Under the pieces are notes generated by a model, which was not told the origin of the DNA, made no database searches, and saw nothing but the letters and a program-made list of their open reading frames with translations. DNA of 58,089 nt from Candidatus Pacearchaeota archaeon (GTDB lineage Archaea > Nanobdellota > Nanobdellia > Pacearchaeales > UBA284): the NCBI GenBank assembly GCA_038894195.1, contig JAWAPZ010000004.1, positions 1 through 58,089 on the forward strand. Reading direction: 5' to 3'. This document shows, piece by piece, positions 5,704 through 28,534 of the stretch (the stretch's first letter is position 1; every line of letters begins with the position of its first letter). Both the position numbers and the translations under genes were made by a program.

Positions 5704-6099
5704 ATGCCATTTAAACTCGACATCGCAGATAAAGGTAGAACGTTTCATGTAGAGACAAGTAGCGAAGCATTCGTAAGAAAGAAACTTGGAGAAACAATTA
5801 AAGGAGAAGTAATTAAAGAAGTAAAAGATTTAAAAGATTACGAATTTGTAATAACCGGGGCAAGTGACAATGCCGGATTTCCTTGTTTGCCGAATATCGA
5901 AGGTTCTGGAAGAAAGAAAGTTCTTCTTACACGTGGCAAAGGAATGCGAATTAAAAAGCCAAAAGGTTTAAGATTAAGACGCACTGTTCACGGTAATGTT
6001 ATAGATGAAACAATTGTTCAAATAAACCTAAAAGTAATAAAACAAGGTTCTAAGCCTCTGAATGAAATTTTTAAAAAAGAAGAAGTTACAAAAGAGTAA
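5704..6099 (+). CDS. rps6e: 30S ribosomal protein S6e
   Basis: ITGASDNAGFP, GLRLRRTVHGN, QINLKV. Confidence 0.95.
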   Translation: MPFKLDIADKGRTFHVETSSEAFVRKKLGETIKGEVIKEVKDLKDYEFVITGASDNAGFPCLPNIEGSGRKKVLLTRGKGMRIKKPKGLRLRRTVHGNVIDETIVQINLKVIKQGSKPLNEIFKKEEVTKE

Positions 6100-6112
6100 A
6101 TCAAATAGCAAT

Positions 6113-6472
6113 TCAGGGTTCGCCAATTTCCTTTTTCAACACAGAATAGTAATCTTTATCGTAAGATGGGATCCCTAATTTTCTTGCTTCTTCAACGTAA
6201 GATAGATTTCCAGAAACAAGAACAAATCTTGCATTGACGTTATTTTCTTTAAGCTTATCTAAAATGTTTTTCCAGTCACCATCAAGGCCATCAACAAAAA
6301 GAAGTTCTATATTTTTTGTTTGTATGTCTTGAACAATTTTTTCAATGTTGGTCTTTGGATCCAAGTAGTAAACATCTGTAAGATCGATGTTTTTATAAAA
6401 TGTACCTATATAATTTTTTAGCGAATTTATTGTATTGAGGTCATCCTCAACCAGCATTACATTTTTTTTCAT
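6113..6472 (-). CDS. stand-alone response regulator receiver (REC) domain protein
   Basis: VMLVEDD, LFVDG (phospho-acceptor Asp), VLVSG, late Lys (YDK). Confidence 0.7.
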   Translation of the reverse strand: MKKNVMLVEDDLNTINSLKNYIGTFYKNIDLTDVYYLDPKTNIEKIVQDIQTKNIELLFVDGLDGDWKNILDKLKENNVNARFVLVSGNLSYVEEARKLGIPSYDKDYYSVLKKEIGEP

Positions 6473-6567
6473 AAAATGATTAAGAATTTTTCATTTTTAA
6501 ATCTTTCCTTTCTAGATAGTAGTAACAAAAACGAAAAGTTTATAAATACTGGTTTGTTCTTAAAAAT

Positions 6568-7026
6568 ATGAAAACTGAAAAAGAAAACTGGGAAAAAGAA
6601 CGAAGCATTATTTATTTTAAAGAACCTGTAAATGCTTTGATAACGCTCCTTCTTGAAATTGATAAAGGGTTGCGTCGAGGAGAGAATTACGTAACACTAA
6701 GAAGAAAAATAATCAACAATCCAGAATATAGGGATGTAATTAAAACTATCAAAGAGTTAGAAGAAACTTTTGAAAAAGCCAACAATTACTTATCAGGCAA
6801 TAAATATAGCGGTGGAGAAGAAAGTTATAATTTAATCGATATTTTAATAGAAGAAAGTAATAGTCAAGTGCCAGAAAAAAAGAAATTTATTAAAGATTCA
6901 TATTTGGCAATCTGTACTTTGATTGACGAAACTGCTCCAACTGAAAATTATACTAAACATATGGAAACTATAAACGAACTTGGTAAAATGGTTGCTAGTG
7001 CAGAGAGGAATCTGGCAGTATCCTAA
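6568..7026 (+). CDS. hypothetical protein
   Basis: 152-aa ORF preceded by BRE/TATA-like GAAAAGTTTATAAAT. Confidence 0.7.
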   Translation: MKTEKENWEKERSIIYFKEPVNALITLLLEIDKGLRRGENYVTLRRKIINNPEYRDVIKTIKELEETFEKANNYLSGNKYSGGEESYNLIDILIEESNSQVPEKKKFIKDSYLAICTLIDETAPTENYTKHMETINELGKMVASAERNLAVS

Positions 7027-7338
7027 ATAACTAAAAAGACTACGAAACCGCAAAACCTGGAACAAAAAGTTACCTAAGTATATAAAACAAAAAACTAAAA
7101 TCTTAAACTTTTTCTTATTCAAAGCAAGGACTTTAAATATTTTTCTTAAGGCATAATCATCATTATATAAAAACAGCTATGGACTTTTTTGGTTTGATTA
7201 AAAATAATCTGTTAAACTTTAAAAACAGATCTTACTAAATTGGGGTATCTCCTAAAAGAGTAAAAAGTATAAAAAGATGCTCCACAATTAAGAATGGGTT
7301 TAAGAAATATTTAAAAGTAACTTGTTTTTTATCTTCTT

Positions 7339-17720: not shown

Positions 17721-17910
17721 GCGCCAGTAGTCTAGTAGTTAGGACACGTCCCTGCCAAATAAGGAACACATTTCCTTATCAACCTTTGGAAAATAAGGAA
17801 CACATTTCCTTATCAACCTTTGGAAAATAAGGAACACATTTCCTTATCAACCTTTAAATTTTAGAGGGCGTGGAACGGACGCAACCCGGGTGCGAATCCC
17901 GGCTGGCGCA
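17721..17910 (+). tRNA. tRNA-Gly(GCC) with 118-nt intron (17758-17875)
   Basis: GCGCCAG/CTGGCGC acceptor stem, CGTCC-CT-GCC-A...C-GGACG anticodon arm, CCGGG-TGCGAAT-CCCGG T-arm. Confidence 0.92.
17758..17875 (+). repeat. tandem 34-bp hairpin repeat inside tRNA-Gly intron (34+34+50 nt)
   Basis: AATAAGGAACACATTTCCTTATCAACCTTTGGAA twice, then a third copy with 16 extra nt before TGGAA. Confidence 0.95.
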
Positions 17911-25067: not shown

Positions 25068-25198
25068 GGGCCCGTAGCTCAGTTGGATAGAGCACTAGCC
25101 TTCTACATAAAAAACCTCCAGCGGTTTTTTATGAATTCCAGCAACCATGCCGAGAAGAGGTTAGCTAGGGGTCGCAGGTTCGAGGCCTGTCGGGCCCG
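25068..25198 (+). tRNA. tRNA-Arg(TCT) with 57-nt intron (25106-25162)
   Basis: GGGCCCG/CGGGCCC acceptor stem, CTAGC-CT-TCT-A...A-GCTAG; CTTC pairs with intron GAGG (BHB-type helix). Confidence 0.92.
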
Positions 25199-27215: not shown

Positions 27216-27321
27216 AGCACGGGGAGGGACTTGCACCCCCGAATATCCGCTAACCACACAAGTTAAGGGAATGTGTCCCTTATTCTGCAGGCGGACGCCG
27301 TAGCTACTGGGCCACCCGTGC
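27216..27321 (-). tRNA. tRNA-Cys(GCA) with 33-nt intron (27284-27252)
   Basis: GCACGGG/CCCGTGC acceptor stem, TCCGC-CT-GCA-G...A-GCGGA, U73 discriminator. Confidence 0.92.
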
Positions 27322-27745: not shown

Positions 27746-28534
27746 TTAAGTAAGTTTAAAAGCAGGGAGCAAAAAAGAAGTCATAGCTTTGCTAAAGAAT
27801 GGACTATTAAATAGTATAGCAATATCGTCTTCTTCTGTTTCCGGGGTTATTGTTATAATGGCTTTTTCATTATCAACTATGCAAAATCTTCCATTCACTT
27901 TAATTTTTTTAATAGGAACGCCCAATAACTTTGAAAGATTTACCAAACTTCCATCCTCTCTATCATTTGAACTTGAAGCTATGAGTATTTTAACATTATT
28001 TTGTTTAAGTTTTTCGAAGATTGGTTTTAAGAAGTGTGCCTTTCTTTTAAGTTCTTGTGGGTTTGAAACCATTATGACTTCTTTTTTTGCAGTACTAACA
28101 AGGTCCTTAATATGGCTGTATATGTTCGCGCGCCCCCTAATAGCTGCACTAAGATCCCCTGGATTTACTGGCTTTATGCCATCGTTATAAAGATTTTCTA
28201 GTTCCCTAAAATCCTCTGAATCCCTTATTCCAACAAGATTCTTTACACGAGTCTCTGCTTCCTTAAGAATTCTTCCTTTAATCCTTTCAAGAACAATAGC
28301 TGGCTTAACAGCAATATATTTAACCGGTTTTCCAAGTTTGGCTATTGCAAATCCTTGCTTTTCTAAACTTTCAAGAACATCATAAACTCTGCTACGAGGA
28401 ACACCACTCACTTCAGCAATTTCGCCTACACTGGCCATATTCCTACTAAGAAGGGCAAGCCAAACTTTACTTTCATAGATATTCAAATTAAAGTGATATT
28501 TAACTTTTTTAACTAATTCTGGTTTTATTGTCAT
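27746..28534 (-). CDS. TrmB family transcriptional regulator
   Basis: LNIYESKVW, SGVPRSRVYDVLESLEKQGF, GKPVKY. Confidence 0.92.
   Translation of the reverse strand: MTIKPELVKKVKYHFNLNIYESKVWLALLSRNMASVGEIAEVSGVPRSRVYDVLESLEKQGFAIAKLGKPVKYIAVKPAIVLERIKGRILKEAETRVKNLVGIRDSEDFRELENLYNDGIKPVNPGDLSAAIRGRANIYSHIKDLVSTAKKEVIMVSNPQELKRKAHFLKPIFEKLKQNNVKILIASSSNDREDGSLVNLSKLLGVPIKKIKVNGRFCIVDNEKAIITITPETEEDDIAILFNSPFFSKAMTSFLLPAFKLT

Follow-up and report, generated by a model that had tools for sequence, protein, structure and literature searches.

A short hairpin repeat in tRNA introns of a Pacearchaeota archaeon: a candidate tRNA-associated mobile element in DPANN archaea

Background

In the window studied here (the whole 58,089-nt stretch of DNA that was analyzed), a tRNA-Cys and a tRNA-Gly gene carry introns that open with nearly the same hairpin. 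This raises a key question: how did one intron sequence come to lie in two tRNA genes of different identity? A preliminary description of the sequence had proposed a mobile intron family that targets compatible anticodon loops and carries a hairpin under structural selection. The origin of archaeal tRNA introns is an open question. Transposition of tRNA introns has been described for Thermoproteales (Fujishima et al. 2010, as described in PMC4090602), and the mechanism by which transposed archaeal tRNA introns arrive is called unknown in the same source, a review of 2014. [quoted passage not shown]

Results

The introns of the tRNA-Cys and tRNA-Gly genes

Without its intron option, ARAGORN called no tRNA in the window, and the intron option was used instead. 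The features of the two genes are as follows.

27216-27321, minus strand: tRNA-Cys(GCA) gene (Rfam tRNA, 42.3 bits; ARAGORN with introns)
27285-27321 and 27216-27251, minus strand: 5' and 3' exons of tRNA-Cys (splice sites from the BHB table)
27252-27284, minus strand: 33-nt intron of tRNA-Cys at 37/38, AATAAGGGACACATTCCCTTAACTTGTGTGGTT
27264-27282, minus strand: Cys hairpin, arms TAAGGGA (27276-27282) and TCCCTTA (27264-27270), loop CACAT (27271-27275)
27252-27257, minus strand: GTGG+TT, of which GTGG forms the 3' strand of the central BHB helix and TT is two bases of the 3' bulge (4/4 pairs with CUGC at 32-35; present in the fold)
17721-17910, plus strand: tRNA-Gly(GCC) gene (ARAGORN with introns, sequence, BHB table)
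17721-17757 and 17876-17910, plus strand: 5' and 3' exons of tRNA-Gly(GCC)
17758-17875, plus strand: 118-nt intron of tRNA-Gly(GCC)
17758-17791, plus strand: Gly unit 1, starting at the 5' splice site (TRF; covariance model R1, 55 bits)
17792-17825, plus strand: Gly unit 2, identical to unit 1 (TRF, R1)
17826-17875, plus strand: Gly unit 3 and a 20-nt host-specific end, the same as unit 1 up to ..CAACCTTT

Both introns lie inside tRNA genes, the joined exons of which form tRNAs of 73 nt (Cys) and 72 nt (Gly); the tRNA-Gly(GCC) gene was missed by Rfam. The Cys intron is a single hairpin copy followed by a host-specific tail, scores 40.8 bits with the covariance model R1 and lacks the TCAACC tail. 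It opens with AATAAGGGACACATTCCCTTA, a 7-bp hairpin with the loop CACAT, situated 2 bases past the splice site. The Gly intron has a structure absent from the preliminary description: it is composed of 2.9 head-to-tail copies of a 34-nt unit (100% matches in TRF), each complete unit consisting of an 8-bp stem (ATAAGGAA/TTCCTTAT), the loop CACAT and the tail CAACCTTTGGAA. The count of three units rests on the assembly, since short-read contigs of the coded DNA runs break within the tandem array. The reads were checked as contigs from four such runs of one study. The joints in these contigs were rejected as a signal of splicing, copy number or polymorphism: their sides measure 21-29 nt or have foreign letters between them, and they resemble tRNA genes of other organisms.

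Over the first 21 nt, the Cys intron and the Gly unit are identical at 19 positions, as claimed at the outset, and the two mismatches, at positions 8 and 16, pair with each other in the stem, as G-C in Cys and as A-U in Gly. A degenerate 21-mer with at most three mismatches found four matches in the window against 0.01 expected, a number reached by 0 of 100 shuffles; genome-wide, it found 12 matches, and the reversed-pattern control found 0. The exons are as dissimilar as first supposed, with 45 of 76 aligned columns identical, so that duplication of a whole gene is excluded. One element thus resides in two unrelated tRNA genes.

Splice geometry and the endonuclease

Another important question is how the introns are arranged for splicing. 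It had been observed that both hosts read CTGC at 32-35 and that both introns end in GTGG-NN. This is correct, and the two motifs are the two strands of the central 4-bp BHB helix, with 4/4 pairs in both genes (the Gly intron ends in GTGG+AA) and with the bulges AG/A and UU/A in Cys and CA/A and AA/C in Gly. The free fold of pre-tRNA-Cys contains the anticodon stem, a 3-nt 3' bulge, the central helix and the hairpin, the last being kept in the minimum-free-energy fold. Among 13 tabulated introns, the central helix has 4/4 pairs in 11 and 3/4 in two. In all sense intron copies, that is, in all but one reversed copy in tRNA-Ala, the element starts at the 5' splice site and its stem stands directly behind the 3-nt 5' bulge, at intron base 3 in Cys and base 2 in the others, while the last six intron bases are host-specific and complementary to the host loop (32-35 or the T-loop).

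This arrangement suggests that the hairpin could act as the outer BHB helix. In the strict sense, the hairpin occupies the right place on the 5' side, from intron base 2-3, but its 3' arm lies 4-6 unpaired bases off the central helix, and because it is not contiguous with that helix on the 3' strand, such a role is only inferred. In Cys alone, an alternative 5-bp pairing, AUAAG/CUUGU, noted by eye from the fold, would give the canonical motif at the cost of the hairpin. The genome encodes a single alpha-type EndA (C2:44416-44985), one protein of 189 aa with the N-terminal and catalytic domains PF02778 and PF01974. According to PMC5829648, as far as that account goes, several DPANN lineages with many disrupted tRNA genes have single-subunit enzymes with an extra loop.

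Copies elsewhere in the genome

Pattern, profile and covariance-model searches agree on 12 copies of the element at five loci and on nothing else significant in this genome.

tRNA-Gly(GCC) and tRNA-Cys introns, both at 37/38: three units and one copy, respectively
tRNA-Ser(UGA), T-loop intron at 59/60: three 35-nt units (gene missed by ARAGORN)
tRNA-Ala(UGC) intron: one reversed copy
Spacer array outside any tRNA, in the 290-nt spacer from a 473-aa ORF to a class-I aminoacyl-tRNA synthetase gene: four 41-nt units and a decayed one

In addition, the intron of tRNA-Lys(UUU) at 37/38 opens with a diverged copy. Similar introns are therefore found in tRNAs of differing identity and at more than one position (Gly, Cys, Ser in the T-loop, Ala and Lys). 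The loop CACAT, said to be invariant, is so in all 12 copies, and two of the eight stem pairs change on both sides, in keeping with the proposed structural constraint. Confinement to CTGC loops did not hold: an identical unit lies in the Ser T-loop intron, and four units lie in a spacer between protein genes. Targeting of compatible anticodon loops was upheld insofar as subfamilies group by bases 32-35 (see below) and failed for the Ser T-loop (UUCG/CGAA), Lys UUU, Ala UGC and the spacer copies; tRNA-Arg(GCG), which also has G34 and C35, is intron-less according to ARAGORN. Thus, the family is mobile and structurally constrained as proposed, but it is not intron-specific, given the spacer array and non-intron copies in other genomes.

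The last, degenerate unit of the spacer array (C1:19055-19098) aligns with the Cys intron together with two 5' and seven 3' exon bases. The score of this alignment, 25, was reached by 2 of 500 shuffles, and the unit may be the relic of a piece of pre-tRNA that was copied.

ARAGORN found introns in 18 of 29 tRNA genes, and at least three further genes were missed. An all-against-all comparison of these introns revealed a second intron family, starting with ATCAGAAACCTACGG.., at three loci.

C7:389-510, C1:~136440-136680 and C1:56610-56738: second intron family, in Gly(UCC) at 37/38, in the T-loop of Lys(UUU) (32/32 identical) and in the T-loop of Pro(CGG)

The tRNA-Lys(UUU) gene hence has two introns, one from each family. 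A further gene in the window has an intron of similar layout.

25068-25198, plus strand: tRNA-Arg(UCU) gene (Rfam), with a 57-nt intron at 25106-25162

This intron consists of one base, the hairpin ATAAAAAACC..GGTTTTTTAT (25107-25132), GAAT and a 3' end that pairs with CUUC. Its layout is that of the element introns and its inner stem differs; it is likely a distant relative and was not scored as a member. At 25105/25163, one low-depth contig (coded run X1) skips exactly the 57-nt intron, with a shorter side of 23 nt, and this joint most likely represents an intron-less gene of another organism. Two genes with introns were named by ARAGORN as 'tRNA-SeC(tca)' (C1:56146-56262) and 'tRNA-Stop(tta)' (C2:26912-27033) and are probably ordinary tRNAs with misplaced intron calls; the latter contains a ATAAAAACC..GGTTTTTAT hairpin followed by GAAT, resembling the Arg(UCU) intron.

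Many introns of this genome open with some hairpin. A broad census of hairpins of the type 'ATAA-stem-TTAT' gave 91 matches against ~ 59 in shuffles, a noisy result in this AT-rich genome, with an enrichment in tRNA genes, in which 21 of the 91 matches fall within 0.67% of the bases. At 27855-27873 (plus strand), ~ 530 nt from tRNA-Cys, the hairpin ATAATGG..TCATTAT followed by CAAC (R1, E = 0.69) is a weak and possibly decayed copy.

An intron swap between near-identical sequences

Does the element still move? A 3.1-kb contig (L026), from a record labelled as a Candidatus Aenigmatarchaeota MAG, matches C1:54860-57985 of this genome at 96.6-99.5% identity, and the 5' flank and 5' exon of its tRNA-Pro gene are identical base for base. 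The T-loop introns of this gene differ: that of the contig is made up of two exact Gly-type units, and an unrelated 55-nt intron, a member of the second family, takes its place in this genome. This comparison indicates that the element has moved recently. The remainder of the MAG (G061) is only 65-72% identical to the window, so that the contig, which is of uncertain provenance, is likely to derive from a strain close to the one studied here. We found no other element copies in that MAG, and it was rejected as a close relative on account of the same low identity, the lack of further copies and a tRNA-Gly that is a different, intron-less gene.

Distribution in the order and the wider family

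The covariance model R1 found matches in 9 of 151 genomes of the same order, and an exact, looser pattern found matches in 12 of 151 against two reversed-control matches. A core of 19-22 nt is identical across different families. Within the same family, copies were found in the genomes G013 and G017, where they occupy the 5' splice site in tRNA genes for Trp CCA, Lys CUU, Gly CCC, Arg UCU and Gly UCC. The introns fall into subfamilies according to bases 32-35 of the host: Gly GCC and Cys GCA share CUGC, pairing with GUGG; GGAGAT closes each of the introns of Lys CUU, Gly CCC and Trp CCA (CUCU/CUCC) in G017 and G013; and a single hairpin subtype is common to Arg UCU and Gly UCC (CUUC) in G017. 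Orthologous tRNAs in relatives have other introns or none. G035 and G045, two species of one genus in another family, have single copies that are preceded by TATA-like boxes; one such copy, upstream of hjc, is common to both. In G016, a copy lies directly past the 3' end of tRNA-Phe. In G050, tandem 61-nt units (hairpin and tail) alternate with a second unit type and extend from gene starts to contig ends (L058, L052).

Beyond the order, a species-level genome collection was searched with the pattern TAAGGG-N5-CCCTTATCAACCC, which combines the hairpin with the TCAACC tail. It matched 58 places in 56 loci, with ~ 4 chance matches expected by rough arithmetic, and all 58 places are in MAGs labelled Woesearchaeota, Pacearchaeota, Nanoarchaeota or uncultured Methanosarcinales. 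Five of these wider-family genomes have 4-13 copies each, with a reversed control of 0. The matches occur in tRNA introns, in spacers on the promoter side of genes and in inserts of ~ 100 nt that lie between duplicated 3' ends of tRNAs. Among 74 distinct sites, five are intron copies and five abut a tRNA 5' end on the opposite strand; many have a TATA-like box just before and a start codon 8-40 nt after the element. The orientation of non-intron copies relative to the neighboring genes varies. The core is conserved across MAGs with different phylum- or class-level labels, and the flanks vary.

The stem covaries strongly in the wider family. Over 36 distinct sequences, the variable inner stem has a total of 63 consecutive Watson-Crick pairs, compared with a mean of 13.5 and a maximum of 29 in shuffles, and the second inner pair occurs as CG (9), TA (9), GC (6) and AT (2). 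The loop is less constant than was supposed: the invariance of CACAT does not extend to these copies, which have CATAT, CAAG, TTC, ACA and others.

Rfam gave no match on the introns (E <= 1), on loci L008 and L001 (E <= 10) or on 12 further loci (E <= 0.1). A scan of viral contigs gave 0 matches, and the four loci found in metagenome contigs were set aside as unrelated by context (a coding region in three, another organism's tRNA cluster in one). In a Nanoarchaeota-labelled MAG with many copies, an Rfam RT-16 RNA was found (L116:761-919; 61.3 bits, above the gathering score), with the nearest copy 2.4 kb away.

Duplicated tRNA ends

If the element inserts as DNA, traces of insertion may be expected at its borders. 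Exact direct repeats of 12-29 nt flank 17 of the 74 distinct sites. The five loci that were inspected (L125, L130, L146, L134 and L143) share one arrangement: a complete tRNA, an insert of ~ 75-105 nt and a duplicate of the 3' part of the tRNA. On the tRNA-sense strand, the insert comprises, in this order, a spacer of ~ 45-70 nt with a second hairpin, the reversed element and 4-10 linker bases, which are of the TGTGG type in four of the five loci; the duplicate follows. Four of the five duplicates start at A57/A58 of the T-loop, and the fifth, that of L143, starts in the T-stem; they extend into the 3' flank, and these duplicated genomic 3' flanks are without CCA. Because each duplicate matches its own host tRNA, it represents a target duplication and thereby favors DNA-level insertion.

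At two loci of another genome (G116; L053 and L057), tRNA genes are preceded by a copy of their own first 12-13 bases, the element, a second hairpin and a stretch complementary to the duplicated bases, an arrangement that resembles target duplication, in this case of the tRNA 5' end. Around the copies of the genome studied here, neither target duplications nor terminal inverted repeats were seen. Inverted ends of 11 nt were noted by eye at the copies of G152, in this one genome only.

Discussion

What kind of sequence is this? The reading now widens from a mobile intron family to a tRNA-associated mobile hairpin element that persists as introns, and we infer its mechanism as follows. The element would be a non-coding repeat with the stem base ATAAGG../..CCTTAT, a short loop and a CAACC tail, which may spread within and between genomes of DPANN-type archaea and prefer sites in or beside tRNA genes. 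A copy that lands inside a tRNA gene would be retained only as a BHB intron, with its hairpin starting from base 2. There, the hairpin could present the single alpha-type splicing endonuclease with an outer helix that is complete in itself, and such a role would let units multiply in tandem behind it without destroying splicing. We give this reading, a miniature mobile DNA hairpin element homing to tRNA genes, an even chance of being correct. Movement at the DNA level is favored by the target duplications, the extragenic copies, the varying orientation of non-intron copies, the tandem amplification and the patchy spread with an identical core. Against it, no mobilizing enzyme was found, and the copies of this genome have no duplications. 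The uniform sense of the intron copies and their fixed start at the 5' splice site are also unlike random DNA insertion and would call for strong selection or an RNA-level mechanism, and the near-identity of the core across families, taken above as a sign of transfer, could reflect a conserved function.

A related and bolder view, which we hold only tentatively, is that a DPANN-wide miniature element homes to the anticodon loop and T-loop and directly yields new BHB introns, in the manner of introners. Eukaryotic introners are small non-autonomous elements whose insertion gives a spliceable intron since they carry part of the splice signal; they rely on the spliceosome, whereas a protein endonuclease and the BHB motif would be involved here, and the creation of an intron by insertion would have to be supposed. 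The hairpin would supply the helix at the 5' splice site, and a match to the host loop would be required of no more than a short 3' strand, which would explain both the subfamilies that follow bases 32-35 and the intron swap between near-identical strains. The head-to-tail units may then be concatenated excised introns.

Rather unlikely, in our judgment, is transposition at the RNA level, in which excised introns, linear or circularized by the tRNA ligase, re-enter BHB-competent loops of further pre-tRNAs, or introns already present at their cleaved 5' splice site, and are copied back into DNA, the head-to-tail units being concatenated whole introns. Every sense intron copy begins at the 5' splice site and the subfamilies track bases 32-35, as this route would predict, and the junction between units, ..TGGAA/AATAAGG.., is that of the 3' end of the Gly intron joined to its 5' end. 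The junction recurs in Gly, in the Pro intron of contig L026 and, with one extra G, in Ser, so that TGGAA stands without a pairing role in two T-loop hosts; the alignment of the spacer-array end with the Cys intron and a few exon bases (score 25; 2 of 500 shuffles) can be counted on the same side. However, the junction can also be read as the element tail, which appears as ..CCTTTGAAT.. in other copies; reverse splicing does not explain the spacer, promoter-side and antisense copies or the duplicated 3' flanks without CCA; and a reverse transcriptase was not found in this 70%-complete genome.

We also consider it unlikely that the hairpin and CAACC form a conserved functional motif, a binding site for a DPANN protein on DNA or RNA that serves, for example, processing, stability or promoter-proximal regulation. 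The conservation of the core amid variable flanks across differently labelled MAGs, the many copies that directly follow a TATA-like box and precede a start codon by 8-40 nt, and the hjc-upstream site common to two species would fit such a role. A conserved requirement is nevertheless contradicted by the presence of the pattern in only 12 of 151 genomes of the order, by the varying orientation to neighboring genes and by the other introns, or none, in orthologous tRNAs of relatives, and tandem identical units with flanking target duplications behave as a repeat element does. Finally, convergence is extremely improbable: a helix past the bulge and a GUGG strand are required of every BHB intron in a CUGC loop, GTGG-NN is dictated by pairing with CUGC and many introns here open with a hairpin, but neither the 19/21 identity, which includes the unpaired loop and the flanking AA (0.01 matches expected), nor the identical 34-nt units in unrelated positions and in non-tRNA DNA would follow.

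Several known classes of sequence were considered and set aside. A CRISPR array does not agree with units that abut directly (34 nt and 100% identical in Gly, 35 and 41 nt elsewhere), nor with the 61-nt arrays of G050, in which the 'spacers' are identical. A C/D box guide RNA is known inside the archaeal tRNA-Trp intron; here, an intron-borne guide RNA of this type was rejected, with no Rfam match on the introns (E <= 1) or on related loci. A plain double-stranded operator leaves the complementarity of the inner stem unexplained, and replication-origin boxes were likewise set aside. A MITE was rejected given that the copies of this genome have no visible terminal inverted repeats or target duplications and that no transposase-encoding partner was found.

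Comparison with known systems and candidate enzymes

The miniature mobile hairpin element preferred here can be compared with two archaeal cases. As in Thermoproteales (PMC4090602; 10.64898/2026.10.13.758758, as far as these accounts extend), the hosts are not paralogues and the BHB motif is present at the junctions. Unlike in Thermoproteales as described in PMC4090602, the host is a DPANN archaeon, the module is a hairpin of 21-34 nt that multiplies in tandem, and the element also occurs outside introns and tRNA genes and is elsewhere flanked by duplicated tRNA ends. In Caldiarchaeum subterraneum, the available account of Sugahara et al. 2012 (PMC3293823) ascribes intron gain and gene fragmentation in tRNA-Thr to a mobile element. 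The Caldiarchaeum case and the present one both show population-level heterogeneity at one tRNA locus, an intron gain tied to a repeated mobile sequence and tRNA fragments beside the gene. The Caldiarchaeum element is 1.8 kb long and encodes a recombinase (PMC3293823), in contrast to the non-coding repeat of 34-110 nt reported here, for which no partner gene is known.

In the literature searched, with most subscription journals and supplements lying outside the search, we found no description of a hairpin element of this kind in DPANN archaea. The element offers a sequence that can be tracked, and it may help to explain intron gain: it occurs at two tRNA positions, grows in tandem, differs between near-identical strains and has relatives with target duplications of tRNA.

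One additional question concerns the enzyme that could mobilize such an element. In this genome (70% complete), a Y1 transposase (PF01797), a reverse transcriptase and a TnpB-type protein were sought, and none was found. Bacterial REP/BIME sequences and the ends of IS200/IS605 elements are short palindromic hairpins next to a conserved flank; they occur in multiple copies, which are often clustered and lie mainly between genes, and the Y1 transposase family defines these systems. The element resembles them as a short multicopy palindromic hairpin with a conserved flank. A REP or IS200/IS605 element was rejected all the same, since Y1 is absent from this genome (0 matches to PF01797) and present in only one of five other carriers (G050), in which no element hairpins lie near the gene; we also know of no REPs that serve as tRNA introns.

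The genome itself encodes one tyrosine recombinase, of Xer size. At three places in two other genomes, an element copy has a tyrosine recombinase gene at a distance of 0.8-2.3 kb, and two of these genes look like ordinary Xer-size ones. In locus L164 (G152:C7:34000-42993), at ~ 5724-7204, a tyrosine-recombinase-like ORF of 388 aa lies ~ 300 nt from an element copy that is itself 11 nt from an apparent tRNA 5' end on the opposite strand, and this ORF together with the copy is possibly an autonomous relative of the element.
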